Shown: one piece after another, positions 13,147-36,178 of the stretch
Layout of the letters: each line of letters starts with the position of its first letter
How positions within the stretch are numbered: position 1 is the stretch's first letter
NCBI GenBank assembly: GCA_038204425.1
Contig: JBBRCZ010000017.1
Location: 1 to 45,683 of the forward strand
DNA: 45,683 nt
Source of the DNA: Spirochaetia bacterium
Lineage (GTDB): Bacteria; Spirochaetota; Spirochaetia; DSM-27196; Salinispiraceae
Direction of reading: 5' to 3'
The notes under the pieces: generated by a model
The model's database searches: none
Told to the model about the DNA's origin: nothing
Seen by the model: the letters and a program-made list of their open reading frames with translations, nothing else
Program-made: the position numbers and the translations under genes

Positions 13147-14172
13147 ATGAGTAAATCTGCCTTCGTCGCTATAGTAGGCCGTCCATCCGCCGGTAAAAGC
13201 ACTTTAATTAACGCCCTCTGCGCGCACAAAGTGTCTATAGTTAGCCCAGTTCCGCAAACCACGCGAAATACTGTCCGTGGCATTGTAACCAAAAACGATG
13301 ATCAATTGGTCTTCGTTGATACTCCTGGTTATCATCAATCCGAAAAAAAAATCAACAACCGTTTGGGAGGTCTCGTTAAGGGCAGTCTCGATGATGCGGA
13401 TCTTACCCTCTACGTAATTGACTCACAACGACCAGCGGGCGAAGAAGAAGAGCTTTTGGCCAAGCAAGTTATTAAGGCAGCTAAGCCAGTTATTGTTGCC
13501 TACAACAAATGCGACGTCGGCAGTTCACGTGCCGCACGAGAGTTTGTCGCGCAAATTTTTGCCGAGTCAACAACTGTAATAGCTAGTTCAGAAGAGCAAG
13601 AAGTAGATGAAGAAAAGAATGGGGACAGAGCTAAAAAACTGACCACCCAAGTTCCCGTTGGTGAATTTGACATTAGTGCAATAAATGGTGATGGTGTAAC
13701 AGAACTATCCCAATTCCTGTTTGACCTAGCGCCAGAAGGGCATGCGTGGTATCCTAGTGAGTACTACACAGATCAAGACCCCGAGTTTCGCATCGCAGAA
13801 ATAATCCGTGAACAAGTTATGAACAAAACGCGCGAAGAAATTCCGCATGCCGCCTACGTTGACATCGAGGATCTTCAAGTGGTTCTACCAGATGGTAGTC
13901 CTGCGCCAGCCGACTATGATGCGAGCCAAGCCTGGGAGCTACCCGTTAGTAAACGTCCGCGACTGCTTATCACGGCCGATATAATAATTGAACGTGAAAG
14001 CCAAAAGGGTATAGTAATCGGCAAGGGTGGCAGTTTAATCAAGAAGATTAGGGAGGAAGCAGAAAAAGAAATACGCGAACTCTTTCCTTACTATATTGAC
14101 CTAACACTACGTATAAAAGTCGACCCCAAATGGCGTGGAGACGACAAAATTTTGAGTAGGTTACTTCACTAG
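13147..14172 (+). CDS. era: GTPase Era with two lineage-specific insertions
   Basis: Start re-set to ATG 13147 (MSKSAFVAIVGRPSAGKST). PQTTR, DTPG, NKCD, ISA; KH domain IAEIIRE...ESQKGIVIGKGG. Confidence 0.96.
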   Translation: MSKSAFVAIVGRPSAGKSTLINALCAHKVSIVSPVPQTTRNTVRGIVTKNDDQLVFVDTPGYHQSEKKINNRLGGLVKGSLDDADLTLYVIDSQRPAGEEEELLAKQVIKAAKPVIVAYNKCDVGSSRAAREFVAQIFAESTTVIASSEEQEVDEEKNGDRAKKLTTQVPVGEFDISAINGDGVTELSQFLFDLAPEGHAWYPSEYYTDQDPEFRIAEIIREQVMNKTREEIPHAAYVDIEDLQVVLPDGSPAPADYDASQAWELPVSKRPRLLITADIIIERESQKGIVIGKGGSLIKKIREEAEKEIRELFPYYIDLTLRIKVDPKWRGDDKILSRLLH

Positions 14173-14202
14173 GTCAAAATCACTGGCTCAGGTTTTTTTG
14201 AC

Positions 14203-14976
14203 TTACTTGAGACGCGATTCCACTCGACCATCTTGATAGCCGATGTAGACTTGAGCCACTGGACAGGTAAATATTCCAACTTCCAAGACTCCAGGTAGTG
14301 ATTTAAGAAACCTCTCCGTGCTGGTTGGATTGAGCTCTGTCCCCAAAGGCAGGCCTTTGGGAAATCGCGCATCGAGAATATGGAGGCCATTGTCAGTTAG
14401 CAATGGCCCGATCTTTCCTGATCCTTCTCGAAGTGTAGCAACAGCTCCAAGTGATTCAACAACCCTCCGCACAGACTCTCGCGCCATTGGCATTATTTCA
14501 ATCGGTACTGCAAACGTGGAACCAAGTAAGTCGACGAGCTTGGTCTCATCGACTACCACAACAAATCTTTTGGCTCGGTGTTCAATTAGCTTTTCTCGAG
14601 CGTGGGCCGCGCCACCACCTTTTATTAAAAAACCTTGTGGGCTTACTTCGTCTGCCCCATCAAAGGCGAGATCAATACCTTGTGCAAACACTGCGTCATT
14701 CAACTCTCCAACATTGAGCCCCAAGGCCCTTGCGATATCATGTGACTGGGAACTTGTAGCTACACACAATGGACTATAGGTCAGACCAGCGTCGACCCAT
14801 GGACCTTTTTTCTCTTCGTTGGCGGTTGTAACAATTTGAGCCAGATATCTGATGCCCCAAATGGCGGTAGTTCCAGTTCCCAAGCCAATTAGAGCGGCTC
14901 TGTCCCTCGGAAGAAAGGCCAGCTCTCGATGGACCATGGTTTCGGCTACTATTTTTTTCAGTTCATTTGTTATCAT
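14203..14976 (-). CDS. rpiA: Ribose-5-phosphate isomerase A
   Basis: IGLGTGTT, DLAFDGADEV, IKGGGAAHAREK, VDETKLV, TDNG, PGVLEVGIF. Confidence 0.95.
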   Translation of the reverse strand: MITNELKKIVAETMVHRELAFLPRDRAALIGLGTGTTAIWGIRYLAQIVTTANEEKKGPWVDAGLTYSPLCVATSSQSHDIARALGLNVGELNDAVFAQGIDLAFDGADEVSPQGFLIKGGGAAHAREKLIEHRAKRFVVVVDETKLVDLLGSTFAVPIEIMPMARESVRRVVESLGAVATLREGSGKIGPLLTDNGLHILDARFPKGLPLGTELNPTSTERFLKSLPGVLEVGIFTCPVAQVYIGYQDGRVESRLK

Positions 14977-14997
14977 TGTTTGCCTTTTACCACGAAT

Positions 14998-17862
14998 TCA
15001 TTGACTAATTCCAGCTCTGTCCCCAAATATAGTCTGCCCATAGATGCGCAGGCCAAAATAGAAGTCGTTAATACTTAGTGGTTTGTTGATTAGAACGTCG
15101 GGACGGAACCGAAATCCTACGTGAAATTCCAAAGGTAGCTCAGAATAGAAGTATCTAGCCATGGTCAAAAACGCCAGTTCGGTGTCAATATAACCAACCC
15201 ACTCAGCCTGCCAGTCAGCGAATCCAATGCCACTAGAAAGAGAAATATACGCCGCCGTTCTATCAAAAGGGATGGACAACAGTCTATCGTCGATCATCGC
15301 CCCTTTTCCCATAAACCGAAGTTCTGCTCTAACGAATCCTTCGTACTCGGAAGTCGCCCAGAGGTCATTGAGTGGCCTGAACCAAGAAGCGGCAATAGAA
15401 CTTGGCGACCAAGAAGCTCCCAAATTCAATCCAAGAATTGCACTTCCAAGGTCAGATGCTAGTCTAAAATCCAGTCCTGACACCATTACCGACGACAAAT
15501 CCGTTGCTAAGGTCGAACCGGACACTCCCACCTTAAGCACCAGTCCTTCAGAATCAAAGACATCAAGAATAGCCCTCGGTGCTTTGTGATTCAAAGTGAG
15601 TGCTGCATTCCAATCAAATGACGTCTCTGGCTGAATTTCCAAACCATCAACAAAGTTGAAGCTCTGTCCCCGTTTACCTGTCCAGTTAGATACCAAGAGA
15701 ATGTCACCTTGCAATTTAGTAAGCTGACCCGTCGAACTAGAATCTGTAATAATCGGAAAGTTTGCCGCAAGCGAAGCAAATCTACGGCTATTCCACGTAA
15801 GTTCCGGCTCTTCATTAGATTCAACTTGGAAACGCTGGCTTGGGTAGTAGCTCTGTCCAAAGTTTAGTACCAGTCTAAGTCCAACAAATGAAATTGCGAG
15901 GCCTCCATGGACCTCCAACTGATTATGCTCTGGCAAAAAAAGTGCGCCAAAAGTGCTTTGAGTATGTCCTATCGCTGAAGCACCTTGCGTCGCAAATCCT
16001 ATTCCAAATCCAGCATTTGTATAAGATGGCAAGGGATACCAAACACTTGGCCAAGGAACGTCTATCAATTCACGCACGCTGCTTTCGATCGGAAAGTCAT
16101 AGCCGGCCACTACTAACTCTCCACGTTCAAAATAGCTCTTCCATATAATTTCTTGTTTCGTCAGATAGGAGGGCTTGATCTTAGAAAAACCGGGTACGGA
16201 TTCCAGGTTTAAATCACTAAGTGCTACTTGCTTGAGCCTAAGTCCATCCGCGGTCCATGTTGAATAGATGACTGACTCATCCAAAAAAATTGGATTCCAA
16301 GCACCGACGGGATCCAGCAAAAATCGAACAATCCCTTTCTCAGTAAACATATAGATTGCAATTTCGTCTTCTCGGTCAGATGAAAAGTAGAAATTGCCAT
16401 TTTTATCAAAAATTGGAGCAAATTCAAATGCTTGGTCGTGAGTTATTTGCTTTAGTCGGCCACTAGTAAGATCAAAGAGTGCAATGTCTGAATTGCCCGC
16501 TTCATTTAGGACTAAGCCCAGGGTGCCACCATCTGGCGAAAATACAATCTTTGTTACCGAAGGAAGTCCATCCATTGGTGAAATTCCACCACTATTTAGA
16601 TCTATCTCCACCATGCCCCAGTTGTCCGATTTTCTCTGAACCGCGAAGGCTCTCTTTCCGTCGGGGGACAGAGCTGGATTCAATAGCCCTCTGGCCAAAC
16701 CCAATCTCTTCACATCAACTACTGTATTTTTCGAATTCAAGGTGTACAGCATCAAATCAGCCTTCTGATATTCGATTTCCAAGCCACTAACGGAGGGTTC
16801 CGTTCTGGAGATCAGTACTTTGGAGCCGGCCTGATCGACAGACCAGGCTTGAATTTGCCCCCCAATTCCTTCAATCTGCTCAACTACCCCGTCTTGATTC
16901 AGAAATGCAAATGTGGTCGCTTGGTCGAGTCTCGCCATTCGAAAGAATATTCCGCGATCAGTGGCTCTTGGTTCCAACCACTGTTCTTGCATACCACTAT
17001 CTCTGGTGCCCATTATGAGTGCATTGTTTGGCCGATATTTTTCAGAAAATCGTTCCCGCGCATGCTGAACTATCTGGGACCAAAGTAGTTCTGGATCAAT
17101 TTGAAACACCTGCCTAATGGCGTGATCTTCGTTCATCAGTGGATGTTCCACTTGATACTTCCATAGTCGAGAGAAGCTACCCAATCCAAACGTCGTTTCT
17201 ACGTAGTCAACAAATAGCATGTGGCTCAAGTAAGGTCTAATTGCAGCACTACCCTTTAAGTTTGCGTGGGCAGCTTCCGCCCAACTCCACATGCGGTCCT
17301 CAAGAATAGCAGCCTTGTAGTACATTTCATTCCAAACGGAAGAACGGTTTCCATCCAGATAACTGGTAGTACCTTCTAACGAGTGCAAGCCAAGGACAAG
17401 ATTTGCACTGCGCACGTCTTTGCCGAATACATTAGAAACATCATAAAATAGTCCCCAAGGAGCCGAAGCTTGTGTGTAGTGTAAAAACTCATGCAAAAAA
17501 ACGCCGCGTGGATCCCGTTGTAAAGCGACACTGATACTGATCCTCATCGGCATTGGCGAAAAGAAACCACCCCAAGGAGGCATATCCTTAGAGCCTTGCA
17601 CAACCACAACTGGTTCCTCAGGAGATATATAGCCAAAAAATCCCGCGGCCACCGTCCTGACCCACAGTGCATATGAAGCGAGCTTTTTGGCAAAAAACTC
17701 ATCTTCTGTCCTATAGATGAACCTAAATCCATTTGACCTTAACTCCATCCAAGTTGTTTCAATTTTGGGGACAGAGCTCAAAATCTGAACTAGGCCAACG
17801 GGGACAGAGCTCAAAAATAACAACAAAAGTGCGCGCTTCCACATTTGTTTACCGTCCTTCAC
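14998..17862 (-). CDS. Exported protein: HEXXH metallopeptidase-like domain + TolB/PD40 beta-propeller + probable C-terminal beta-barrel
   Basis: Signal peptide; VFLHEFLHY...EG; PALSPDGKR, FSPDGGTL, FYFSSDR repeats; alternating aromatic beta-strands in the C-terminal ~350 aa. Confidence 0.7.
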   Translation of the reverse strand: MKDGKQMWKRALLLLFLSSVPVGLVQILSSVPKIETTWMELRSNGFRFIYRTEDEFFAKKLASYALWVRTVAAGFFGYISPEEPVVVVQGSKDMPPWGGFFSPMPMRISISVALQRDPRGVFLHEFLHYTQASAPWGLFYDVSNVFGKDVRSANLVLGLHSLEGTTSYLDGNRSSVWNEMYYKAAILEDRMWSWAEAAHANLKGSAAIRPYLSHMLFVDYVETTFGLGSFSRLWKYQVEHPLMNEDHAIRQVFQIDPELLWSQIVQHARERFSEKYRPNNALIMGTRDSGMQEQWLEPRATDRGIFFRMARLDQATTFAFLNQDGVVEQIEGIGGQIQAWSVDQAGSKVLISRTEPSVSGLEIEYQKADLMLYTLNSKNTVVDVKRLGLARGLLNPALSPDGKRAFAVQRKSDNWGMVEIDLNSGGISPMDGLPSVTKIVFSPDGGTLGLVLNEAGNSDIALFDLTSGRLKQITHDQAFEFAPIFDKNGNFYFSSDREDEIAIYMFTEKGIVRFLLDPVGAWNPIFLDESVIYSTWTADGLRLKQVALSDLNLESVPGFSKIKPSYLTKQEIIWKSYFERGELVVAGYDFPIESSVRELIDVPWPSVWYPLPSYTNAGFGIGFATQGASAIGHTQSTFGALFLPEHNQLEVHGGLAISFVGLRLVLNFGQSYYPSQRFQVESNEEPELTWNSRRFASLAANFPIITDSSSTGQLTKLQGDILLVSNWTGKRGQSFNFVDGLEIQPETSFDWNAALTLNHKAPRAILDVFDSEGLVLKVGVSGSTLATDLSSVMVSGLDFRLASDLGSAILGLNLGASWSPSSIAASWFRPLNDLWATSEYEGFVRAELRFMGKGAMIDDRLLSIPFDRTAAYISLSSGIGFADWQAEWVGYIDTELAFLTMARYFYSELPLEFHVGFRFRPDVLINKPLSINDFYFGLRIYGQTIFGDRAGISQ
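17767..17811 (+). repeat. Two direct copies of GGGGACAGAGCTCAAAA, 33 bp apart, in the 5' end of the 954-aa gene
   Basis: Copies at 17767 and 17800; encode LSSVP twice on the minus strand. Confidence 0.9.
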
Positions 17863-18604
17863 AACGCAGAATCAAATACGAAAGTTCGCCTTTCTTCGTT
17901 AAATTGATGATATGATCGCGGTAGAAGTCAACTAAGACGATTGGGTCAACTAAGCGCCTGATTTTGGTGTTTACCTGGCTCTGAACCGAATCTATCTTGT
18001 TCTTTAGCCGCTCTAGTATTCGTGCTTCGACATCTTGACGAGTAAGGGCACCAAGAACCCCTTCATAATCTTTATCTTCAACTAGTTTTTGATAACGACT
18101 TGGATCGGCCCTAAACTTGGATTCACTTATGTACAATGCCCCAAAATGAACGCGCCGAGCGATCGCCTGTAAGCAAAAGACATCCTGCTCAACGCTTGAG
18201 CCGTAGTGCCCATCATCGCCGCTTGGACATAAATCTACTAACATCAGTCTATAAGATTGTAACAAGTCAAAATTCTGGTTGATCACATTGAAGTCGCCGA
18301 TTTTAAACGCACTTTCAGCTTTGGGGGGGGTACGTTCAGGGATAGGCAGGTCATCAGTAAACGGGCGTTCTTCGGGCACCAAGAATCTTCCAAAAACTGA
18401 ATCCATTTGTTCTTGCATTGCAAGACGAATCTGAAACAAGCTTTTGTCGCCTCTAGAGGGAAAGCCTCCTCCACCGAGTAGGTAGGCGGGTCTATTCTCA
18501 GCAAATTGAGCACGATCGAGAAGACGGAAGATGATGCTCTCTTCAAGACTCTCAAGTACTGCTGCAACTCGATTCAAGTCAAAGACATCAAAAGGATACA
18601 TCAT
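17849..18604 (-). CDS. Chorismate mutase, eukaryote-type (Aro7/AroQ-beta-like)
   Basis: LESLEESIIFRLLDRAQF, GRFLVPEERPF, YGSSVEQDVFCLQAIARRVHFG..ISESKF, INLTKKGELSYL parallel yeast Aro7 motifs (EDSIIFKFIER; LQSLSRRIHFGKFVAEAKF). Confidence 0.85.
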   Translation of the reverse strand: MMYPFDVFDLNRVAAVLESLEESIIFRLLDRAQFAENRPAYLLGGGGFPSRGDKSLFQIRLAMQEQMDSVFGRFLVPEERPFTDDLPIPERTPPKAESAFKIGDFNVINQNFDLLQSYRLMLVDLCPSGDDGHYGSSVEQDVFCLQAIARRVHFGALYISESKFRADPSRYQKLVEDKDYEGVLGALTRQDVEARILERLKNKIDSVQSQVNTKIRRLVDPIVLVDFYRDHIINLTKKGELSYLILRCEGR

Positions 18605-18764
18605 AGTCTATATTATTACCCAAGAAGAGGCAAAAGTTAAGTACAAAGATTCAAAATCTAAGTAACATTGGATTTTGCCCAGGAAAAAGAGAGAGTCTTG
18701 GGGACAGAGCTAAAAAAAGACAATTGATTCAATCAGCTTTCCCAATTCCTCTGTAGAGTTTGTC

Positions 18765-19283
18765 ATGAGAAGAACCCGAACTCTGGCAACTGATGCCACG
18801 TATCACGTTACGATGAGAACAAATGGAAAGAAGCACACGCTTTTGGACCCTAAAACCAAAGAATTATACTTGCAGACTCTCAATCGGGCTAAAAAAAAAT
18901 ACAACTTCACTATATATAATTTTTGCATAATGAATAACCACGTACACTTTTTACTGCATCCACATAGTGATTCGAATCTTTCACGGATAATGCAGTGGAT
19001 CTCAAGTGTTTTTGCTATGGCATATAACCGCCAAGCTGGTGAATGTGGGCATTTTTGGGGAGAAAGGTTCTTTTCAAAAATTGTCAAATCGATTGCGGAT
19101 TTCGTGGCATTGTTTCGTTACATTAACGATAACCCGCTAAAGGCCGGCTTAGTTGCTGATTCTATTGATTGGCCTTTTGGTGCCTTGGGTCACCATCGAA
19201 AGGGTCTTTTCAATATTTCAGATGCGCCTGAGCCATGGTTGTTAGTACAATTTCCAGAACATAAAATTGTGTTTGCAGATTAG
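18765..19283 (+). CDS. REP-associated tyrosine transposase (RAYT)-like HUH/Y1 nuclease, IS200/IS605 superfamily
   Basis: YHVTMRTN, CIMNNHVHFL (HUH), GHFWGERF, RYINDNPLKAGL (catalytic Tyr + NP). No tnpB adjacent. Flanked by inverted 12-mer copies at 18700 (+) and 19556 (-). Confidence 0.9.
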   Translation: MRRTRTLATDATYHVTMRTNGKKHTLLDPKTKELYLQTLNRAKKKYNFTIYNFCIMNNHVHFLLHPHSDSNLSRIMQWISSVFAMAYNRQAGECGHFWGERFFSKIVKSIADFVALFRYINDNPLKAGLVADSIDWPFGALGHHRKGLFNISDAPEPWLLVQFPEHKIVFAD

Positions 19284-19555
19284 AATTGCTTGTTGTCACT
19301 ATTGGATAGTACGTTCGTTTCACCAATCATTGCTCAGACTCAGTAGCCGTTCATAGTCGGCACTTTATAAGTGAAATGAGTTAGAATCACCGCAAAAGAA
19401 AGCTCTATAACGGTACTCTTGGATCGCGACGTTTATCGAAGTTCAAAATCAAACGCTCAAATAAGCTCTGTCAAGCAAAAGCGATTTGCGCCTTAGTTTG
19501 GTATCACAAACATTTCTAATCCAGCGTTATCTCGTTATCAGTTGATGATCTTTTT

Positions 19556-19597
19556 TGCTCTGTCCCCTATTGTTGTCCCCACCTATTGTTGTCCCCA
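19556..19597 (-). repeat. One-mismatch 12-mer copy followed by a perfect 2 x 16-bp tandem repeat, downstream of the RAYT-like gene
   Basis: TGCTCTGTCCCC at 19556-19567; CCTATTGTTGTCCCCA at 19566-19581 and 19582-19597 (TGTCCCC occurs three times). Confidence 0.85.
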
Positions 19598-19876
19598 ATT
19601 GTCGTTCACCCAAACGATGATCCCAGAAAGACTCATTTTTGGGGTTATATTTTTCTTGCCGTGCATTTTTGCTGACTATACGTTGGCAGCTGCCAAAGAT
19701 GCAAAACAGATCGCAAGACTATACCCTACAATTAATTAATCACTTTTTTAATGGGATCGGCTCCGCCCTAGAATTCTTTTGCGAATCAATCTTCTAAACA
19801 GTCTCAACGAAGTGACAGTTTTCTATTTAATGGCTTTGCTCGTCTGATTGTGATTGCGGCCAGTGTTTGTTTGGGG

Positions 19877-20482
19877 TCAGAGCTCATCGACAGTATTCAA
19901 CTCTGCCTTTCTAATACCCACCACCAAGCTACTGAACTCGGCAACTTTCCAGATACCTTGCGAGTTTTTCTTGAGGGTTAATGGTCTTGGCGAATCGGCT
20001 CCACTCGATCGTACGAACAAACGTATTGCACCATCATTTTGTTGACTGTAGTTGTTTCGACTAGTTTCTACTTCAACGGGAAAGCTTCCAATTTGATAGC
20101 CATTCGCCGGTGAAGTACCAGAAACATAAGAGTGCCCAACATGTGCGTTGTTATCTATTCTCTTGATCAAGTATTGTGCACTCGCACTTGGTTCAAACCC
20201 TTTATAGCCACCTTTGGAAGTCGGCCTTATTTGGGCGCTGTCATTCACTAGGATCACTGTAAAGAAATGCATACCCACAACGGGGTCTTGTCCATAGCGA
20301 ATCATAGCTACGACGAATAGCGCCGCCGCACCTTCTGGGGTCTGGCCTAAGCTTTCTCTAAGCTCTAGGTAATCTTCAATTGATTCAGGGATAGTATCAA
20401 TCTTGATCTTCAAAGCCTCTTGAGACCAGACTGCGGGAAAACACGACACCAATACGCAAATTATCGAGACTATTCTCTTCAT
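19877..20482 (-). CDS. Exported conserved hypothetical protein (DUF6935-like)
   Basis: Signal peptide; TPEGAAALFVVAM, SYVSGTSPANGY, SSGADSPRPLTL, WKVAEFSS; RBS AGGAG. Confidence 0.65.
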   Translation of the reverse strand: MKRIVSIICVLVSCFPAVWSQEALKIKIDTIPESIEDYLELRESLGQTPEGAAALFVVAMIRYGQDPVVGMHFFTVILVNDSAQIRPTSKGGYKGFEPSASAQYLIKRIDNNAHVGHSYVSGTSPANGYQIGSFPVEVETSRNNYSQQNDGAIRLFVRSSGADSPRPLTLKKNSQGIWKVAEFSSLVVGIRKAELNTVDEL

Positions 20483-20601
20483 AAAAAACTCCTTTATATA
20501 GGCGAAATTGCCTCAAAAACTAATTGTACGCGTATACTGATAACTTTACAAACTATTGAATTACTGTACATTATTGGTTTTGAACGATACCATCACAAGT
20601 C

Positions 20602-21171
20602 ATGGCTATCACTTCAAAAAACGCTTCTCAATTCGTGGTTCCTACTATTGCTGGTCTCTTTTTGGTCTTTCTACGAATTTCCTCGTTTACACTTGGAGGA
20701 GGTTACGCAATGGTTGGCGTAATGGAAAGCAATCTCAAAAACAAACAGTGGATGAACGGGCTTGATTTTCTTGAGCTCTTCACCATCGCCCAGTCATTTC
20801 CGGGTGTTTTGGCGATCAATACGGCAGTAATTGTAGGTTGGCGACTAAGGGGCTTTTGGGGAGCAACGGCTGGATTTTTTGGCGTAATCATACCCCCTGT
20901 GATCATCATCAGCTTTTTAAGTCTATTCTACGAAAGCATTACCGAGTCAGAATATGCCCAAGCCTTTTTGCTAGGTATTTACGGAGCCATGGTAGGAATC
21001 GTAGCATCGTTAATCTACAAGATCATAAAGTCAAAGCGCTGGAATATCTTTACTTTGTTGGCGAGTTTGATGGGGACAGTGCTCTTGTCAATTTGGGCTG
21101 AATTGGCTCTACCGATATTCATTGTTTTGGTTTCGCTCGTCTACATGGGTACAAAAAAATGGATGCCATGA
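20602..21171 (+). CDS. chrA: Short-chain chromate transporter (CHR) subunit 1
   Basis: FTLGGGYAM, AQSFPG..AIN, G....GFWGA, IIPP motifs. Confidence 0.88.
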   Translation: MAITSKNASQFVVPTIAGLFLVFLRISSFTLGGGYAMVGVMESNLKNKQWMNGLDFLELFTIAQSFPGVLAINTAVIVGWRLRGFWGATAGFFGVIIPPVIIISFLSLFYESITESEYAQAFLLGIYGAMVGIVASLIYKIIKSKRWNIFTLLASLMGTVLLSIWAELALPIFIVLVSLVYMGTKKWMP

Positions 21172-21689
21172 AATTGGGCCAGATGGCCGTGGTTTTTTTC
21201 TTTGTCGGAATGATGTCATTTGGCGGTGGATGGACAACAGTTGGTTTGTTGCAAACCCAGCTGGTAGGAAATGGCTGGATAAGTGCCCTTGGCTTTGGCA
21301 ACATTGTCGCTATCGCACAAATAACCCCCGGGCCCGTTTCTATAAACACTGCCACGCTGATTGGCATTCGTGAATATGGAATTGTAGGAGGAATCATTCT
21401 AACGCTGGCGGTGGTTGCATTCCCACTTTTAGCAATTGTGGCTGGTTTCCTCTTGTCCAAGCACCTTAAGCTGGATCGAGGTCGATTGATGATTGCCCTC
21501 GGGGTGGGAACACTATCAATGCTGGCTTTGACATTGTTGCATTTACTAGCGATTCCGGCCATTAATCTTTTAACCATCGCTATCGGTTTGTCATCCTTTT
21601 TCTTGGTCACATTTACCAAAATAAATAACTTAATTCCCATCTTTGCTGGAGGCGCAATCAGTTTGACATGGTACTTGCTTAACAAATGA
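21168..21689 (+). CDS. chrA: Short-chain chromate transporter (CHR) subunit 2
   Basis: SFGGGW, AQITPGPVSINTATLIG; ATGA overlap with subunit 1 (alternative start 21159). Confidence 0.88.
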   Translation: MKLGQMAVVFFFVGMMSFGGGWTTVGLLQTQLVGNGWISALGFGNIVAIAQITPGPVSINTATLIGIREYGIVGGIILTLAVVAFPLLAIVAGFLLSKHLKLDRGRLMIALGVGTLSMLALTLLHLLAIPAINLLTIAIGLSSFFLVTFTKINNLIPIFAGGAISLTWYLLNK

Positions 21690-21792
21690 GAGTTTTTTTG
21701 AGCTCTGTCCCCGTCGGCAGTTGTTTCCTCATCGACGGTGAAGTGCCCAGACTCTTCGTCATAGGCATTTTCCCGCCCCAAAGGACCTTCTA

Positions 21793-26078: not shown

Positions 26079-26084
26079 GGCAAT

Positions 26085-26378
26085 ATGACTAAGCAAGAGT
26101 TTGTATGGACCGTCGGCTTCAACGGCAACACGGCAATTATTAATCGACAAATGAAAGAACGAAACAAGGACCTCTCGCCTAAAAATTTGCTAGAACAAGG
26201 TTTAGTTAGACCGGCAGTTTGCAGTGCGCTTTGGGACAGTCAAACTAATGTTGGCGCTTTAGACGAATTCGCCAAACAGTTTAGCCAGAAGACGGCGATT
26301 GAGATTGATGCAGATGGTCTTAAACGACTAGTCGGTGTTTATACAATACCGCAAAACATTCGAACCCTCGCACTTTAG
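26085..26378 (+). CDS. Small hypothetical protein (97 aa)
   Basis: Fills the gap between the groEL terminator and a convergent gene; has its own promoter-like sequence. Confidence 0.7.
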   Translation: MTKQEFVWTVGFNGNTAIINRQMKERNKDLSPKNLLEQGLVRPAVCSALWDSQTNVGALDEFAKQFSQKTAIEIDADGLKRLVGVYTIPQNIRTLAL

Positions 26379-26393
26379 ATTATTTAACGACTA

Positions 26394-27263: not shown

Positions 27264-27275
27264 AGTTCTTGGATC

Positions 27276-27848: not shown

Positions 27849-27851
27849 GGT

Positions 27852-28490
27852 CTATCTCCTTGCCCTGATGATTTTTTTTTGCAAATGGGAAACCAAAGCG
27901 ATCAAGAAACCAAGTGTTATAAAAGCTCCTGGTGGCAGAATAAAAATCAGGATGCCTGAGGCTTCTTCTTCAATAAACTTGTAGCCAAACAGAGAACCCT
28001 CACCAAGTATTTCTCTCACTGAGCCCAAGAGGGTTAGAGCGGCTGCAAAACCAAGACCCATAGACAAGCCATCTATCAGAGACGCAAAAGGTGTATTTTT
28101 GGCCGCAAACGCTTCGGCTCGTCCCAGAATTATACAATTGACCACTATCAGTGGTATAAATATGCCAAGTGACTCGTAAAGATCCGGCAAGAATGCTTTC
28201 ATAAGCATTTCCAATATGGTTACAAACGAAGCAATCAAAACGATGTAGGCAGGAATCCTTACCTGATCGGGTATTAGATTTTTTAGTAGCGATATCGTCA
28301 CATTTGACGCCATCAAGACTACCAATGCGCTTAGTCCCATGCCCAATCCATTCATTGCACTCGAGGTCACTGCAAGCGTAGGACACATGCCCAAAAGCAA
28401 AGTAAAGACAGGATTCTCGCGCAAAATTCCTTTGAGCAAATCTATGCTTGGCTTTTTCTTTGCAAGCCCGGGGGTCGTTAGTTCACTCAC
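27852..28490 (-). CDS. rnfE: Rnf complex subunit E
   Basis: ENP..LLGMCPTLAVT, FIPLIVVNCIILGRAE, LPPGAF. Confidence 0.95.
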   Translation of the reverse strand: MSELTTPGLAKKKPSIDLLKGILRENPVFTLLLGMCPTLAVTSSAMNGLGMGLSALVVLMASNVTISLLKNLIPDQVRIPAYIVLIASFVTILEMLMKAFLPDLYESLGIFIPLIVVNCIILGRAEAFAAKNTPFASLIDGLSMGLGFAAALTLLGSVREILGEGSLFGYKFIEEEASGILIFILPPGAFITLGFLIALVSHLQKKIIRARR

Positions 28491-29158
28491 TCGTGCACCT
28501 CGCTTTGCTGTCTAAGAGCTTCGACTTGCTCTGCTTTGATTCTTTTTAGACCATCGAGTGCGCGCTGGAGCGCATCACAAAAAGCTCGACTTGAGATGGT
28601 CGCTGCGGCAATAGCATCAACCTGGCCGCCATCCTGTTTAACTTTGACCACAAAATTCTCCGTTTCTTGGTTGATGAACTGTTTTTGGAAGCCTTTGCTG
28701 GAAATCTTACTGCCGAGTCCCGGAGTTTCTGCGTGCGAAAGTACTTTGACACCAGTCAAAGCGCCCTTGACATCAATGCCAACTATCATGGTAATTCGTT
28801 TCGCATAAGCTTGATCGCTGTAAGTTTGGACGGCAAAACCCAAAAGCGCCCCGTTTTGTTTCAAAGGAAAAACGATAAGGTCTGGATCTGCTGCAATAAA
28901 AATACGTTCTTCAAGAGCATCATTGTTAGCACCAGGCAAGACACTTGCGATTGCATCAATTTGCTTCTGCTTTTCTGTGCTATCAATTAAGTCTTTGGTA
29001 CCGACGTACGTGATGCTCAACAAAAGTGCCGATAGTGTACAAATAGTGCCCAATACAATTATCATGTTTTTTAAGCTCGAACGTAACGGCGCCTTGCCGA
29101 TGGGTTTTGCCTGGACCTGCTTGGGCTGGTCTTGTTTCTGAGCTGTTTTTTTACTCAT
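28487..29158 (-). CDS. rnfG: Rnf complex subunit G
   Basis: N-terminal TM, HAETPGLG, DAIAAATISS (FMN-Thr motif). Confidence 0.93.
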   Translation of the reverse strand: MSKKTAQKQDQPKQVQAKPIGKAPLRSSLKNMIIVLGTICTLSALLLSITYVGTKDLIDSTEKQKQIDAIASVLPGANNDALEERIFIAADPDLIVFPLKQNGALLGFAVQTYSDQAYAKRITMIVGIDVKGALTGVKVLSHAETPGLGSKISSKGFQKQFINQETENFVVKVKQDGGQVDAIAAATISSRAFCDALQRALDGLKRIKAEQVEALRQQSEVHE

Positions 29159-30228
29159 GCCTTAAGCTCCTTGCTTAATGGTTTTTTGAGTCTTCCAAAG
29201 CGACTTGGTTTTGAGTAGCGATCTATCAGTGGTACCAAGGCGTTCATTATCAATATGGCATAGCTAGCACCCTCAGGATAACTGCCAAATAGGCGTATTA
29301 AGGCAGTCAGCACTCCAGCCGAAAAAGCGAATATTATCTTGCCAACGAAGGACATTGGACTAGTTACCATATCGGTAATCATAAAAAAGGCCGCCAAAAC
29401 AGCTCCGCCCGACAGTAAATGATAGAGTGGGTTTATGTACTGGCTAGGATCAAGCATGAAGAACATTCCCGTCAGTCCCCCGAGTCCAAGCAAGAAGAAA
29501 AACGGCATTTCCCAGCTAATCACTTTGGTGGCCAAAAGAAACACACCACCTAGCAAAAGTGCCAAAGCACTGGCTTCGCCGATGCATCCACCTTCGTTTC
29601 CCAAAAATTGTTCAAAATAAGTGGGGGCGGCGCTCAAAATCTGCCCTAAATCAAGCCCCTGTTTGAGGCCTTCTTTTACTCCAGTCAATATGGTTGGAGC
29701 AGTGAGGCCATCCACCATTGCCTGCCAGTCATAGGGCCTTGCGAAGCTGGTCATGGTTACCGGAAAACTTGCCAACATAAAGGCACGCCCAGCCAAAGCC
29801 GGGTTAAAAGGATTGTGCCCCAGTCCACCAAAAGCCATTTTGGCAACAGCGATTGCAAAAACCCCACCAAGAGCGGCCTGCCAAAGCGGTATACCTACCG
29901 GCAAGTTGAGTGCCAAAAGCAACCCTGTCAATGCTGCGCTTCCGTCCACTATGGACCACTTCGACTGCTTGCTGTGCAGACCTCGCAGCACCAAAGCTGG
30001 TTTGGGCCTGCGTGAAAAAAACAGAACCTGAACCAAAAATTCGGTCAAAACCGCGCTAGCCAAGACCACAAGAACAACAACAAGTGCCTGCCATCCAAAG
30101 GTGTAGATGCCAACGCCCAGAGCAGGCAACAATGCCAGAACCACTGACCACATTATCCAACTGGTGTTTTGTTGACCTACAACATGAGGGGAGAGACTCA
30201 CCGTTAGGACCGCAGAATCGTTTACCAT
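29155..30228 (-). CDS. rnfD: Rnf complex subunit D
   Basis: SPH, FGGLGHNPFNPAL, DGLTAPT, GCIGE, TDMVTSP. Confidence 0.95.
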   Translation of the reverse strand: MVNDSAVLTVSLSPHVVGQQNTSWIMWSVVLALLPALGVGIYTFGWQALVVVLVVLASAVLTEFLVQVLFFSRRPKPALVLRGLHSKQSKWSIVDGSAALTGLLLALNLPVGIPLWQAALGGVFAIAVAKMAFGGLGHNPFNPALAGRAFMLASFPVTMTSFARPYDWQAMVDGLTAPTILTGVKEGLKQGLDLGQILSAAPTYFEQFLGNEGGCIGEASALALLLGGVFLLATKVISWEMPFFFLLGLGGLTGMFFMLDPSQYINPLYHLLSGGAVLAAFFMITDMVTSPMSFVGKIIFAFSAGVLTALIRLFGSYPEGASYAILIMNALVPLIDRYSKPSRFGRLKKPLSKELKA

Positions 30229-30242
30229 CAGTCTTACCTACC

Positions 30243-31646
30243 TTAGCTTCGTTTGACACGCATTAGCTGCGCTTTTCCAAGTCGTATATAGTCGAGTATG
30301 CCGCGTTTGGCTGGGCACACATAGCTGCAACTCCCACATTCTACACAATCTCTAATTGCGTGTTTCTCTGCCTCTTCTAGCCGTCCAAGACCTACTAATT
30401 TTTCTAGTAAATAAGGCTCGAGTCCCATTGGGCAGACCGAAACACAGCTGGCGCAGCGAATACATGCACCAACAGCCTGACGACTATGCTGCTCACCTTG
30501 CAAAACAAGAATTCCTGAACAGCCCTTAGTGACCGGTACGTCTAAGCTGGTTAACGTTTTTCCCATCATCGGACCACCAAGGATTACCTTAGTGTTGCTA
30601 CTTGGAACAAAGCCAAGTTCTTGCAAAACTTCGCGCACGAGCATCCCAATTCTAATTTTGTAGTTACCGGGCCTAGCTATACCATCGCCGGTTACCGTCA
30701 CTATGCGCTCAACCATTGGTTTGTGTTTTTGCACAATTTTGTAGGCCGAATGGGCTGTTGCAACGTTGTTTACAATTACGCCAACATCGAGTGGTAGCTT
30801 TCCGGAGGGCACCTCTCGACCAAGAATTGCCTCTATAAGCTGTTTTTCGGCGCCTTGTGGATATTTGACTTTGAGAGCAATAACGGCGATATAACCAGCC
30901 CGACTTGGATTGTCAGAGGGCCCGGCCTTGGCCTTCATGTGCGCCTGAAGAAAGCCTTTTGGGGGTGAAAGGCCCATGGCGTCTATCGTTTGCCGCAAAA
31001 TCTTGATAGCGTCTGCTTTGTTTTCTTCAACGCCAATGATGGCAAGCTTGACCCCCAAGGTAAAACGCAATAAGTTGGAACCAAGGACGACTTCCTCTGG
31101 GCGCTCCAGCATCAAACGGTGGTCGCTGGTTAGATAAGGTTCGCACTCAACGCCGTTTATAAGAAGTGTATCTACTGATCTTCCTGGTGGCACCAAATAC
31201 TTGACCCGGGTCGGAAACGTGGCGCCACCTTTACCGACCAGCCCCCCGTCGTTAATTTTGTCAGTAATCTGATCTGGGCTATAATCAATACTTTTGACCA
31301 AATCAAAATTGCGGACTATGCCTTCTTCCCAGTTGTCGCCATCTCTTTTGATTAGGACTGCCGGTTTTCTAAAGCCGCCAGCGTCAAGAACCGTGTCAAC
31401 TTTGATCACCGTGCCAGAAACCGAGGAATGAACAGGTGCTGAAATCATGCCCTGCCCTTTGGCAATCAAGGTACCAACCTTAACAAGATCGCCTTCCTTG
31501 ACCAAAACTTGGGCAGGGCTACCAATATGTTGAATAAGAGGAATCCAAACCGTTGCTGGCAGTATCATATTCTCAATTGGTCTGTCGGCAGTAAGCTTAT
31601 GATCATGGGGATGCATACCGCCTTTGGAAAAAGTCATGCTCTTCAT
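30243..31646 (-). CDS. rnfC: Rnf complex subunit C
   Basis: QHIG, GKGGATFPT, NGVECEPYLTSD, YPQGAEK, GGPMMG, two 4Fe-4S motifs. Confidence 0.95.
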   Translation of the reverse strand: MKSMTFSKGGMHPHDHKLTADRPIENMILPATVWIPLIQHIGSPAQVLVKEGDLVKVGTLIAKGQGMISAPVHSSVSGTVIKVDTVLDAGGFRKPAVLIKRDGDNWEEGIVRNFDLVKSIDYSPDQITDKINDGGLVGKGGATFPTRVKYLVPPGRSVDTLLINGVECEPYLTSDHRLMLERPEEVVLGSNLLRFTLGVKLAIIGVEENKADAIKILRQTIDAMGLSPPKGFLQAHMKAKAGPSDNPSRAGYIAVIALKVKYPQGAEKQLIEAILGREVPSGKLPLDVGVIVNNVATAHSAYKIVQKHKPMVERIVTVTGDGIARPGNYKIRIGMLVREVLQELGFVPSSNTKVILGGPMMGKTLTSLDVPVTKGCSGILVLQGEQHSRQAVGACIRCASCVSVCPMGLEPYLLEKLVGLGRLEEAEKHAIRDCVECGSCSYVCPAKRGILDYIRLGKAQLMRVKRS

Positions 31647-32524
31647 GCTTGCACCTCAGTTACTAAAGCATCAATACTGTTCAATTTAGATTTTACTAGT
31701 TCAAAACTTGTCATTATAGCCGCTGTGGGACAGACCGGAACGCACTTTCCACACGCTATGCATTTATCTGGATCTAATTGCGCCAAATTGTTGACCAAGC
31801 TAATTGCGCCAACGATGCCTTCGCAAACCTTGACGCATTTAGCGCAGCCAATGCAGGCTTTGTCGCAATTTTTGCGAGCGAGTGCACCTTTTTCGGTGCT
31901 GCTGCAGTTGATCCAAACCCGTCGTTCGCGCTTACCGAGCCCGCGCAAAAAGAAAAGTGTACGCGGACAAACCTTTAGACATGCACCACAACCCGTACAC
32001 TTTTGGGCATCAATTTCTGGCAGGCCAGTTTTTGCATTCATACTTAAAGCATCAAACTTGCATACATCAACACAATCACCTTGACCGAGGCAGCCAAAGC
32101 TACAGCCTCCTTCACCGGCAAACAAGCCATGACTGACCGTACAGCTGACTGGCCCTTGATAGTGGACTTTGGTACTTGAGGCCTGACAGCTTCCTCCGCA
32201 ACGCAAGACAGCTATCACTTTTTCAGCCGACGAGGTTTGTAGGCCAAAGTAGGCACCAATACCGTCCATCACAGGCTGGCCGCCTGGTGGGCATCTCAGA
32301 TCTGCTAGGTCGCCTTTGTCGGCAGCCTTTAGCAAGGCACTGGCAAAGCCACCGCAACCTGCAAAACCACAGGCACCGCAATTGATCCCTGGCAGCAATG
32401 CTTGGACGTCCACTTGCCGTTCATCACCGATGACGACAAATTTTTTGCTTACAAAAAAAAGGATAAGAGCAAGTAGAGCCGCAGTTGCGCCCAAACTAAG
32501 CATAGCAATCAGTACACTATTCAT
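31643..32524 (-). CDS. rnfB: Rnf complex subunit B
   Basis: LPGINCGACGFAGC, CPPGG, multiple CxxCxxCxxxC ferredoxin motifs. Confidence 0.95.
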   Translation of the reverse strand: MNSVLIAMLSLGATAALLALILFFVSKKFVVIGDERQVDVQALLPGINCGACGFAGCGGFASALLKAADKGDLADLRCPPGGQPVMDGIGAYFGLQTSSAEKVIAVLRCGGSCQASSTKVHYQGPVSCTVSHGLFAGEGGCSFGCLGQGDCVDVCKFDALSMNAKTGLPEIDAQKCTGCGACLKVCPRTLFFLRGLGKRERRVWINCSSTEKGALARKNCDKACIGCAKCVKVCEGIVGAISLVNNLAQLDPDKCIACGKCVPVCPTAAIMTSFELVKSKLNSIDALVTEVQA

Positions 32525-32538
32525 AACACAACCTCGTT

Positions 32539-33006
32539 TTAGCGACTCTGATTTTCAGACGAAGCAAGAATCACAAACTCAAAATGATGCGCAATTTTTT
32601 TGCGCAGGGGATAGAGCATAGAAAAGTAAACTACCAAAAGGCCAAGACTTATTAGCCCACCTATAAGCTCTGTCCCCAAAAAATAGTTGGCAATTAATAG
32701 CCCCGAGCAAAGCAAAACGATCGGTACGACAAAAACCAGAGCTAACGCCAGCGTTGTATGTTTACTTGCGCTTGCCAATGTAAGCTGTTCACCTATTGCA
32801 AATTGGGTTTTGGACTTCACTTCAATAATTGTGCCTTTGTTTTTATTGAGGCCGGCATGGCACCCGCTTTGTCGAGCATTGCAAGATCCACAGCTCGTTG
32901 GTACAGAAACCAAGATCTGAACTAAGCCAGAACCACACGACTGTACTACGCCTCGGTAGTAACTAGTATCATCTTTGGGGACAGAGCTCTCAGCAGTGCA
33001 TTCCAT
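32539..33006 (-). CDS. rseC: RseC/MucC family protein
   Basis: SCGSCNARQSGC Cys motif plus two C-terminal TMs, immediately upstream of rnfB. Confidence 0.8.
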   Translation of the reverse strand: MECTAESSVPKDDTSYYRGVVQSCGSGLVQILVSVPTSCGSCNARQSGCHAGLNKNKGTIIEVKSKTQFAIGEQLTLASASKHTTLALALVFVVPIVLLCSGLLIANYFLGTELIGGLISLGLLVVYFSMLYPLRKKIAHHFEFVILASSENQSR

Positions 33007-33149
33007 ATATACCTAACCGTTCGCATGGGGTAATTTTTCTGGGGTTACATGGTAAGTATAAACCTTGAACTGGATTTTCCACAATACAAATCTGGGAAAA
33101 TGTTTCATATGTTGGAACGTCGTTGCAGAAATGGTCGATTTGAGTGCGC

Positions 33150-33178
33150 TTGAGATGGCCATATCTTTGTTCTATACT
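33150..33178 (+). promoter_or_regulatory. Putative sigma70 promoter giving a leaderless SDR transcript
   Basis: TTGAGA-17 bp-TATACT, ATG 6 nt later at 33185. Confidence 0.55.
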
Positions 33179-33184
33179 GGTCTT

Positions 33185-33952
33185 ATGTCATTTATTATCG
33201 TAACTGGTGCCACATCTGGCATTGGCAGAGCTTACGCTCTCTTGCTTGCAAACAAGGGCTATGACCTTGTCCTATGTGGCCAACGAAGCACTCAATTGGA
33301 AGAACTTGCCCAAACCATACGCCAAAAATTTGGACGGCAAGTTGATACACAAATCGGTGACCTCGCTGATCCTCAATTCCAAAATGCAGTAATTGCTAAG
33401 GGACAGAGCTTGCCGCTCGGTGGTCTGATCAACAATGCAGGATTTGGGACATCAGACTTGTTTGTAACTGATGCTTTTGAAAAGCAATATAAAATGATGG
33501 AAGTTCATTGTCACGCCCCTATGAAGCTCTGTCACGCGCTCATCCCTCAGCTGCTCGGAAAAAAAGGTTTTGTGATCAATGTTGCAAGTATGGCAGCCGA
33601 CTTGCCGGTGCCCCGGGCCGCTATCTATGCCGCCAGCAAAGCAGCACTTCTAAGATTTAGCGAGGTTCTTGACCTGGAGCACATCCAAGATGATCTTATG
33701 GTCCAGTGTCTAATGCCAGGTTTCACCAAAAGCGACTTTCATGGTCGCCTTGACCATTTTGAACAAGCTACAAAGAGCAAGGGCCTAATTAGGTGGCTTA
33801 CGGCAGACCAAGTTGTTCAGAACTCTTGGAAGAGGCTAAAGAAAGGTCGCGTTCGGGTAATCACGGGCTTGGTTAATCGATTGGTGCTCTATCCGTTGAG
33901 AAGGCTGCCATGGTGCCTTTACCGGCTGATAGCCGGCTCACAAAAAATATAA
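33185..33952 (+). CDS. Short-chain dehydrogenase/reductase
   Basis: TGATSGIG, NNAGFG, YAASK; start re-set to ATG 33185. Confidence 0.92.
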   Translation: MSFIIVTGATSGIGRAYALLLANKGYDLVLCGQRSTQLEELAQTIRQKFGRQVDTQIGDLADPQFQNAVIAKGQSLPLGGLINNAGFGTSDLFVTDAFEKQYKMMEVHCHAPMKLCHALIPQLLGKKGFVINVASMAADLPVPRAAIYAASKAALLRFSEVLDLEHIQDDLMVQCLMPGFTKSDFHGRLDHFEQATKSKGLIRWLTADQVVQNSWKRLKKGRVRVITGLVNRLVLYPLRRLPWCLYRLIAGSQKI

Positions 33953-33955
33953 ATT

Positions 33956-35029
33956 TTAGCGACTGCTTGTTTGTTTGGCTCTACGTTTACGCACCGCTGC
34001 CGCCAAGTCTTCCAGCAGAGGCACGGTCTGATCCCATGAAAGACAGGCGTCGGTAATGCTTTGCCCGTAGACCAATGCAGCGCCAGGTTTCAATGTTTGG
34101 TTACCGGCAACAATGTTGCTTTCAATCATGACACCAAAGATCTGCTGACTTCCTTGTTCAAACTGCGCCACCACATCTTGCACAACCAAAGCTTGTTTGG
34201 TGTGATCCTTCTGACTGTTGCCATGGCTACAATCAACCATGAGCCGGGGACGTAGTTCGGCCTGAGCCAAGGCAGCGCTTGCCTTTTCCACGCTGACCAA
34301 ATCGTAGTTGGTCGCACCAGAAGAACCTCGCAAAATAATATGACAATAGTCATTGCCGCTAGTGGCAACAATTGCGGCCACCGATTGCTTAGTAACCGAC
34401 AAAAAATGATGAGGAATCTTGGCTGCATGAATAGCATCGATAGCAATCTTAACATTGCCGTCGGTGCCATTCTTAAACCCAACTGGCATAGATAATCCAG
34501 AAGCTAGTTCTCTATGGATTTGGCTTTCAGTAGTTCGAGCTCCAATGGCGCCCCAGGAAATTGTATCGGCCAAAAATTGTGGACTTATGGTGTCCAAAAA
34601 CTCACAGGCAGTTGGCAGACCAAGGCCAACAAGCTCAACCAACAAGCCTCTTGCGATATGCAGGCCCTTGTTAATCTGAAAACTGTCATCCAAAAAGGGA
34701 TCATTGATTAATCCCTTCCAACCGTTGCGCGTACGGGGTTTCTCAAAATAAACACGCATCACTATTTCCAGATCGGCGGATAGCTTATTGCGCACACTTG
34801 CCAAGCGCTGTGCATAGTCTAAAGCAGCTGTAACATCGTGTATTGAACACGGTCCGACAACTACCACCAGCCGGTCATCGGCACCGTCCATGATGGCTTC
34901 TATGGCTTGGCGGCTGTCAGAAACTAGTTGCTGACCCTGCTCGGTTAGAGGTAGTTCTTCCATCAAAATGGCGGGCGGAATAAGTGGTTTAATATCTCGT
35001 ATACGTAAATCGTCAATTCGTGAATGCAT
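33956..35029 (-). CDS. aroG: DAHP synthase, class I-alpha (AroF/G/H type)
   Basis: VGPCSIHD, RVYFEKPRT, GWKGLINDP, IGARTTESQ, DCSHGNS, YGQSITDAC; start re-set to 35029. Feedback specificity is not determinable. Confidence 0.93.
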   Translation of the reverse strand: MHSRIDDLRIRDIKPLIPPAILMEELPLTEQGQQLVSDSRQAIEAIMDGADDRLVVVVGPCSIHDVTAALDYAQRLASVRNKLSADLEIVMRVYFEKPRTRNGWKGLINDPFLDDSFQINKGLHIARGLLVELVGLGLPTACEFLDTISPQFLADTISWGAIGARTTESQIHRELASGLSMPVGFKNGTDGNVKIAIDAIHAAKIPHHFLSVTKQSVAAIVATSGNDYCHIILRGSSGATNYDLVSVEKASAALAQAELRPRLMVDCSHGNSQKDHTKQALVVQDVVAQFEQGSQQIFGVMIESNIVAGNQTLKPGAALVYGQSITDACLSWDQTVPLLEDLAAAVRKRRAKQTSSR

Positions 35030-35083
35030 GGCACTACCATTTACGATTGGACGCATGATTGTCAATATGCTACGTTCACAGAC

Positions 35084-36178
35084 ATGGACAGCATTGCTCA
35101 CTTCTCAAGCCACCTTGCACATTTTCCGTTGCCAAGCAGCCAAAATGGGCCGTTATTGTTCAGCGCACCCCTTGCCGGTCTCAGTCATGGCGCGATGCGC
35201 TGCTTATGGCAAGAACTTACAGGCCCTGATGTTTACTTCTCAGAAATGATTAGCGCTGACGCCCTTGAAGCTCGTTCTCCCTACACATCCGCCTATTTAG
35301 ATACCGCTCCCGACAGTTCCCGTCTTATCTATCAGCTGGTAGGAGCGAGTCAATCATCGATTATCACGGGCATAGATAGGCTAGTCGAACACACTATTGT
35401 GCTCAGGCAAAGTGAGGCAAATGCGATTCTCGGTATAGACCTAAATATGGGCTGCAGCGCACCAGACATTGTACGTAAGGGTTCAGGCATCGCTTGGATG
35501 GAAAAGCCCGCCGATGCTGCCGAGTTGGTAAAAAAAGCAGTTTCTCACCTCAAACTCGACAAATTTTGTCTATCAGTCAAACTACGACTGGGAAAGTCAG
35601 TTGATTCAGACTACCTCTTTAAGTTTTGCCATGCGATAGAGACTGCGGGGGCAAGTTTCATTACGCTCCATGCTCGGATCAAGGACGACCCATGGGCACG
35701 GCCTGCCAAATGGTCACAAATTGCTCCACTGGCACGTGCGCTCAATATACCCGTCGTCGTTAACGGTGATCTTCAGGACCAAACAAGTCTTGAGGCTTTT
35801 TATGCTGTTTGGGGACAGAGCTCAAATTGGGGACAGAGCTCAATTCAAAGCGCCAAAAATCCAGCAGGGTTAATGATGGGGCGCGGTGCCATTACTCGAC
35901 CCTGGATTTTTTCTCAAATTTCCAGGCAGTTTGTCAAACCAGTGCAAGCCTTGGATCGACTCGCTATCGCCAAGCGTTTCCATCAACTCTTGGAACTGCG
36001 ACAACCAAAAGATTTTTGGCTCAGCCGCGCCAAACGTTTTTATGCATACTATTGTTTATCGCTCAATTTTGGCAATCGACTTTCGGGCGCAATTGGCAAT
36101 CTGAAAGACTACCGAGAAATTGAAAACCTTGTCGAAGCTTATCTAGCTAAAAGTAAAGAGCGCTTTACTTTTAGCTAG
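35084..36178 (+). CDS. tRNA-dihydrouridine synthase family protein
   Basis: APLAG, SEM, IDLNMGC, SVKLRLG, TLHAR, NGD, MMGRGA..PWIF; start re-set to 35084. Confidence 0.9.
   Translation: MDSIAHFSSHLAHFPLPSSQNGPLLFSAPLAGLSHGAMRCLWQELTGPDVYFSEMISADALEARSPYTSAYLDTAPDSSRLIYQLVGASQSSIITGIDRLVEHTIVLRQSEANAILGIDLNMGCSAPDIVRKGSGIAWMEKPADAAELVKKAVSHLKLDKFCLSVKLRLGKSVDSDYLFKFCHAIETAGASFITLHARIKDDPWARPAKWSQIAPLARALNIPVVVNGDLQDQTSLEAFYAVWGQSSNWGQSSIQSAKNPAGLMMGRGAITRPWIFSQISRQFVKPVQALDRLAIAKRFHQLLELRQPKDFWLSRAKRFYAYYCLSLNFGNRLSGAIGNLKDYREIENLVEAYLAKSKERFTFS
35809..35844 (+). repeat. In-frame 2 x 18-bp tandem repeat of the 12-mer inside the Dus gene
   Basis: TTGGGGACAGAGCTCAAA TTGGGGACAGAGCTCAAT encoding WGQSSN-WGQSSI. 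Confidence 0.93.

Follow-up and report, generated by a model that had tools for sequence, protein, structure and literature searches.

A 12-nucleotide word clustered in coding DNA around a Y1 HUH transposase gene of an uncultured spirochaete

The stretch of DNA analysed here, called the window, is the whole 45,683-nt contig JBBRCZ010000017.1 from the genome of an uncultured spirochaete (2.84 Mb, 95.6% complete). It carries a gene for a 172-aa transposase of the Y1 HUH type, resembling RAYT and TIRYT proteins (18765-19283, forward strand; PF01797, E 1.5e-17), and around this gene a single 12-mer, GGGGACAGAGCT, recurs both between and within neighbouring genes. The HVH and Y---NP motifs of the Y1 protein are intact in the alignment, the latter reading YINDNP, and Y1_Tnp is the sole domain found, with no C-terminal helix-turn-helix (HTH) extension. 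The TnpA-REP model NF047646 matches at 99 bits (cut-off 80), while the IS200 model gives 34.8, below its cut-off of 55, and the protein aligns with the TnpA-REP structure 4er8 at E 1.4e-6. The gene is the only member of its family in this 95.6%-complete genome, where it is present in single copy without IS-like duplicates, and it is carried by none of seven genomes of the same taxonomic family (completeness 57-99%). Most of its relatives have similar lengths; no longer one was found at E 1e-20, which is weak evidence. Directly beside it lies a chorismate mutase gene (17849-18604), whose sole NCBIfam match is the plant/yeast-type TIGR01802 at 156.7 bits (cut-off 170.9).

The gene is flanked by two inverted copies of the word. 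The upstream one, which we call the master copy, forms the left inverted repeat (18700-18728, forward strand) and lies 65 nt 5' of the start codon; a same-strand copy is found at -65 to -74 in 11 of the 22 loci examined. The right inverted repeat (19536-19567, reverse strand) has one mismatch and lies about 270 nt 3' of the gene. The repeats at 18700 (+) and 19556 (-) share about 25 matched bases, and GGGGACAG fits the consensus GGGGWSAS. Such an arrangement, a Y1 HUH gene flanked by inverted repeats with GGGGWSAS, has been named the TIRtron in the accessible part of the original description (Di Nocera 2013, PMC3733652), and judged by its bases the bracketed gene has this layout. No sigma-70 promoter was found over the master copy. 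Two partial GGGGACA units adjoin the right inverted repeat towards 19600; partial units of this kind stand 3-9 nt before full copies at 12235-12258 and 19568-19600, and likewise upstream of three related elements (G011:C33, G009 and G111:C1).

GGGGACAGAGCT is the commonest 12-mer of the window, with 17 exact copies (12 coding and five intergenic) against about 0.002 expected from Markov models. It is also the commonest in the genome, although 17 of the 22 genomic copies lie on this one contig. Of the other five, three are on contigs whose ends overlap those of the window, which puts them at distances of about 31, 63 and 120 kb from the gene, and two are on contig C8. The word is therefore local rather than genome-wide, a fact which, like its link to the Y1 gene and its decay with distance, is absent from the sequence-only reading that first drew attention to it. 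The region is almost unchanged in three public sequencing runs from two studies (one run may be the source of the assembly), and the clustering is thus no assembly artefact. The intergenic copies begin at 12247, 12276, 12375 (to 12386, forward), 18700 and 21701 (to 21712, reverse). The first two belong to a 29-bp tandem duplication (12235-12292, forward), one unit of which is missing from run X2, so duplications of this kind are still variable. Around related elements, too, tandem repeats that hold the motif are frequent. One-mismatch copies are found at 19873, at 21072 in a chromate transporter gene, at 33399 in an SDR gene and at 38335 in an Sfp-like gene (range 19873-38346).

The coding copies occupy all six reading frames of the window genes, as the sequence-only reading had claimed, and every peptide that it listed is found in its place. 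In sense frame 0 the word is read as GDRA, in era (13621-13632, forward) and at the C-terminus of a 954-aa protein (15013-15024, reverse). Sense frame 1 gives GQS, once in the 954-aa protein (15660-15671, reverse; RGQSF) and twice in dus, on the forward strand, where copies at 35811 and 35829 stand 18 bp apart (35811-35840). Sense frame 2 gives GTEL, within LGTEL in both rpiA (14333-14344, reverse) and rseC (32666-32677, reverse). Antisense frame 0 is read as SSVP, at the N-terminus of rseC (32977-32988, forward) and twice at that of the 954-aa protein, where copies at 17767 and 17800 (17767-17811, forward), 33 bp apart, have 17 nt in common from the first base of the motif. Antisense frame 1 gives ELCP, within ELCPL of a 625-aa open reading frame (ORF; 22331-22342, forward), and antisense frame 2 gives ALSP in the 954-aa protein (16664-16675, forward). 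The core is indeed free of stop codons in all six frames, but this does not count as evidence, since 63% of shuffles of GGGGACAGAGCT and 32% of random 12-mers are stop-free as well.

The constraint acts on the DNA. Among the sites in ORFs of the window contig where the encoded peptide allows the word to be written silently, 13 of 13 have it, 12 of them within real genes and the other within a spurious ORF, when 0.043 would be expected, whereas in the rest of the genome it is present at 3 of 72. The enrichment thus persists against a synonymous null, which bears out the earlier proposal of a DNA-level constraint; together with the use of six frames, this rules out a peptide motif. Peptides compatible with the word are also 11-fold denser in the window contig, at 308 per Mb against 28 elsewhere. 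Four control words made by shuffling find 1-3 sites where 1.1-1.9 are expected. The amino-acid sequence has therefore moved towards the word as well. Taken together, ten halos, as we call such local clusters, have 159 of 173 silently compatible sites realised against 1.9 expected, a sum that omits two outer windows of genome G256 (3/5 and 0/0) and the orphan clusters of G275 (23/28). In a syntenic control region of genome G014, the word is present at 1 of 13.

In 14 regions there are 255 perfect copies where fewer than one is expected, an enrichment of several hundredfold. One-mismatch sites number 72 (about 13 expected, roughly five-fold), and many of these vary systematically, at positions 7, 9 and 11. 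Two-mismatch sites, at 226 against about 200, are at background, leaving little shoulder. Silent sites two or three mismatches away are depleted in one motif set (2 vs 7.3, p 0.02) and not significantly so in two others; this depletion fits writing of the word, and also a long ratchet. Visual inspection showed a hairpin with T-rich and A-rich flanks in only some of the window's copies; it was rejected, as pooled flanks are near background.

Relatives of the Y1 gene occur in 12 of 40 genomes sampled from the order and in 18 of 400 from the phylum, and at most loci with enough flanking sequence there is a halo whose word is that of the locus, either GGGGACGGAGG, GGGGTCGGAGG, GGGGACGGAGC, GGGGACAGAGG, GGGACAGACC or again GGGGACAGAGCT. 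These halos lie at unrelated host loci in related spirochaetes, each with the variant of its own element, and two loci within one genome carry different words. Genome G256 is complete, and 26 of its 39 copies are less than 20 kb from its single RAYT gene. With 17 loci pooled, clusters thin out smoothly, their density per 10 kb dropping from 13.2 to 0.6 between 0 and 40 kb. When three genomes were chosen by motif clusters alone, a RAYT gene was found in or beside the cluster in all three, and nearly all other genomes compared have 0-3 copies of the word. Halo copies follow their own master, both in core variants (match 0.94 vs 0.76 when shuffled) and at positions 11-14 (0.50 vs 0.37; p 0.0002, over 19 loci among which kin are not independent). 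The halo almost certainly belongs to the Y1 element. Farther away, the Acetoanaerobium noterae record (L158), with a distant relative of the gene, has 14 longer repeats with a GGGACGGTT core in 40 kb, two of them just upstream of the gene. Among four plasmid loci that carry distant relatives, a single cluster of longer repeats was found and no coding halo was recognised.

How the copies arose can be followed best where a genome with the element (G022) is compared with a syntenic complete genome (G014) in which the Y1 protein query found no element. Of 19 coding copies in G022, 18 have no gap within 6 nt and are same-length substitutions; at the ungapped sites, G014 has the word itself at one and one to four mismatches at 15, and the changes are both silent and amino-acid-changing. 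Between genome G017 and its genus mates, a gap is found nearby at 2 of 4 and 3 of 6 coding sites, a lower share without indels than in G022. For the genes of the window, nucleotide-level orthologues are too distant, and protein homologues were used instead, most alignments of the 954-aa protein being at 21-27% identity. Here insertions contribute: the era copy falls within a segment that exceeds its counterpart in five family orthologues by about 25-29 aa, and both dus copies, which form an 18-bp repeat, lie in an insertion of 15-16 aa relative to 7 of 7 homologues; both insertions are specific to the lineage. A two-mismatch copy at 14896-14907 lies within a 5-aa insertion in rpiA that is missing from 14 of 14 homologues. 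The exact rpiA copy is in a variable loop whose length is that of 5 of 7 same-family orthologues. The copy in antisense frame 2 had been thought to overwrite a conserved PALSPDG; at the protein level it does not, as PALSPD is ancestral, being found in 6 of 8 aligned homologues, and only its codons have silently changed. Three of the 12 coding copies are without comparison, since no rseC orthologue was recovered and the 625-aa ORF has no usable homologue, only one weak partial match. Alignment with orthologues thus upholds the earlier proposal that copies come by substitution as well as by insertion, while conversion, its suggested route, is a matter of interpretation.

Once present, the sites are mostly kept. 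Sister genomes that share an element have 14 of 17, 13 of 14 and 5 of 8 ungapped sites in common, and fourfold-degenerate positions within the word are identical between sisters at 28 of 29 (background 0.76), 33 of 38 (0.59) and 15 of 18 (0.65).

The account that we favour, with somewhat better than even confidence, is that a cis-acting, enzyme-initiated conversion over short tracts changes near-matches into the recognition word, and that purifying selection filters the outcome. The word would be the binding or guide site of the enzyme, and the enzyme would act in cis, either produced next to the master copy 65 nt 5' of its gene or tethered to that copy. Nicking followed by strand transfer or templated repair over some 11-13 nt could correct up to two or three mismatches in one step, and decayed copies would be corrected again in the same way. 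Harmful edits would be purged, leaving silent changes and changes in tolerant loops, and no benefit to the host would be required. A toy simulation on the coding DNA of G014 bears on this choice. With protection of existing sites as the sole process, 1-3 sites result; capture at the last step gives 3-8, unlimited selection at that step 6-16 and capture of sites with two or three mismatches 7-41, so that only this last, direct capture reaches the 19-20 observed. HUH enzymes of this family cleave and strand-transfer single-stranded DNA, also away from the bound site, according to the accessible parts of two papers (PMC3333891, PMC8266576). The spectrum of copies and the saturation of compatible sites, taken together with the simulation and with the nicking and joining by these related enzymes, lead us to favour conversion in cis. 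A more general statement is plausible, although we stop short of leaning towards it: the short HUH Y1 class may be a cis-limited writer, which from its own locus replaces near-matching 11-13-mers with its recognition word, changing several bases at once and making no indels, keeps them corrected, and so recodes genes and slowly reshapes proteins within about 30 kb. If so, what has been published as the "terminal inverted repeats" of these elements would be no more than the innermost members of their halos.

Several observations weigh against conversion by the enzyme. Four elements with intact HUH and tyrosine motifs have gene-proximal copies only (G011:C33, G111:C6, G111:C11 and G405:C14). In genome G275 some clusters lie between 90 kb and 2.5 Mb away from the matching element and have no remnant of a RAYT gene, and these are undecayed and saturated at 23 of 28 sites (contig C1, at 676-698, 964-976, 3250-3255 and 3473-3476 kb). 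They may have been displaced from a halo or may mark former sites of the element; since they are undecayed, either recent rearrangement or some action in trans is needed. Beside shared sites there is no co-conversion, mutagenesis or extra divergence, and the flanks are not conserved. No long tracts copied from the master are seen, the match exceeding background only from -1 to +13. Motif-containing duplications point to no decisive nick position, being right-dominant in nine cases and left-dominant in six (15 long shared tracts, 60 close pairs), no consistent strand bias relative to GC skew appears at 14 loci, and the three runs of the same organism have no multi-base polymorphism at coding sites. 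The simulation is crude, as it assumes uniform constraint. Finally, conservation of orthologous sites is predicted equally by selection.

The complete genome G275 has two more RAYT genes on the same contig, near 2112 and 3457 kb (L121-L124), with different local words, a GTGACAGTCACC-like palindrome and ACCGCCTGCT, neither of which fits GGGGWSAS.

Selection and drive by transfer both retain some weight, because conservation and saturation fit either and the tests of nicks, tracts and strands are negative or undecided. Under selection, Y1 binding sites near the gene would serve autoregulation, an antenna or local DNA structuring and would be built by point mutation, as has been argued for HIP1. 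The fourfold-degenerate positions kept in sister genomes are as expected from this, the graded footprint of 11-14 nt resembles a protein site, the master copy stands at a fixed upstream distance, and three lineage-specific differences between loci L041 and L068 are single-base. Against selection for binding, sites are almost fully saturated as far as 20 kb from the gene, about half of them with changed amino acids; the host loci are unrelated, one genome can have several words and the two-mismatch class is at background; and in the simulation even unlimited selection stays below the observed count. We consider it unlikely. Somewhat less probable again is that nicking at the word mobilises the region of the gene between cells, so that linked alleles spread and linkage produces the decay with distance. 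The signature in coding DNA, with peptide enrichment and permissive sites, is like that of DNA uptake sequences (DUS) and uptake signal sequences (USS), as the accessible parts of two studies describe them (PMC2817400, PMC2397512). The distribution is also patchy, as the gene's absence from the seven family members illustrates, and in two of six pairs synonymous identity increases away from the element (rho 0.67 and 0.43). The other four pairs have no significant gradient, though, one being negative; no transfer product is seen, new sites would still depend on point mutation, with the shortfall seen in the simulation, and motif-headed tandem arrays are not predicted.

Local hypermutation is improbable. 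Here nicking would raise mutation while bound perfect sites are protected, and the word would accumulate passively. Codon adaptation is low (z -1.4 to -2.0) in the four genes of more than 200 aa nearest the element, and synonymous identity is lower near the element in G022/G014 and G011/G034; but divergence rises only modestly, codon adaptation is equally low in other window genes that are distant from the element, and protection alone gives the smallest counts in the simulation. That the word is unrelated to the Y1 gene, being a host protein site, a peptide motif, an assembly artefact or chance, is very improbable in spite of the orphan clusters of G275, given the use of six frames, the three runs from two studies, and the centring of the word on RAYT genes in many genomes, where it covaries with the element and is nearly absent otherwise, and this idea is largely refuted by the RAYT genes at all three clusters picked by motif.

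Other parts of the window and genome deserve a brief description. The run from 702 to 11756 resembles Type II secretion (a secretin, a T2SSG match, ATPase- and GspF-like ORFs), with several ORFs without assignment. The 625-aa ORF (22254-24131) has no Pfam or NCBIfam family. The gene cluster at 38144-45683 appears to include genes for an Sfp-like transferase, an SDR reductase and an acyl carrier protein, a cut HMG-CoA-synthase-like gene, and FabF-like, FabZ-like, BioF/serine-palmitoyltransferase-like and two enoyl-CoA hydratase-like genes (three of these names come from profile matches and the others from reading of the proteins), and as a whole it resembles a beta-branching or unusual-lipid cassette. 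A CRISPR-like repeat of about ten copies is among the top 14-24-mers of the genome.

Published work already covers the family of the enzyme, the layout of the TIRtron and its consensus; the coding halo appears to be a new behaviour. A literature search found no description of a local coding halo, within a scope that covered few subscription journals and did not include the supplements of Di Nocera 2013. The comparisons that follow hold for the accessible portions of the papers cited. With the TIRtron the element shares the Y1 HUH gene, the GGGGWSAS-type inverted repeats (GGGGACAG), the single copy and the lack of a hairpin of the repetitive extragenic palindrome (REP) type. TIRYTs belong mostly to TnpA-Y1 subclass 2.1 (Quentin 2018, 10.1101/279083), which is RAYT Group 1 (Bertels 2017, 10.1101/119735). 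The window protein, at 172 aa, is without the C-terminal HTH typical of that subclass, and because this tail is missing the element is filed as TIRtron-like and not under subclass 2.1; two supplements of the published TnpA-Y1 classification hold no spirochaete entry. The TIRtron papers describe terminal repeats and genome-level families of terminal inverted repeats, whereas here a bare 11-13-mer extends across neighbouring coding DNA, mostly by same-length substitution, and decays with distance. A long TIRYT on a Sporomusa plasmid has terminal pairs only.

The REPtron, in which TnpA-REP is accompanied by REP, BIME or REPIN repeats, has the same enzyme family, a cognate repeat beside the gene and tandem amplification of repeats (4er8; PMC3333891, PMC8266576). 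Its REPs, hairpins with a GTAG foot, occur throughout the genome, mostly between genes, and spread by insertion, while the present word is non-palindromic (GGGGACAGAGCT is self-complementary only in AGCT), local, mostly coding and mostly substituted in place; no GTAG-footed palindromic REPs are seen in the flanks of the Y1 gene, which were read and not folded. If the enzyme does write the word, this would be a natural multi-base editor that makes no breaks, a directed mutational force moulding housekeeping proteins according to their position on the chromosome, and a first activity for the REP-less RAYTs, whose role is open.

Like DUS and USS, the word is short, non-palindromic and strongly conserved, and lies in coding DNA in several frames, with enriched peptides and at permissive sites (PMC2817400, PMC2397512). 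Those sequences are genome-wide and species-specific; the GGGGACAGAGCT halo is limited to about 30 kb and is specific to its element. With the cyanobacterial HIP1 it shares frame independence, conservation at orthologous sites and the same dispute between enzyme-directed repair and selection (PMC4390886, PMC5861425). HIP1 is palindromic, genome-wide and linked to methyltransferases, whereas the partner here is a neighbouring gene for an HUH nuclease, and built-in controls are provided by lineages that have the element and others that lack it. Even under selection, the halo would be a local and switchable counterpart of HIP1 and DUS, and owing to its element-free sisters, the several words per genome and the gradient with distance, the question of repair or selection becomes directly testable.

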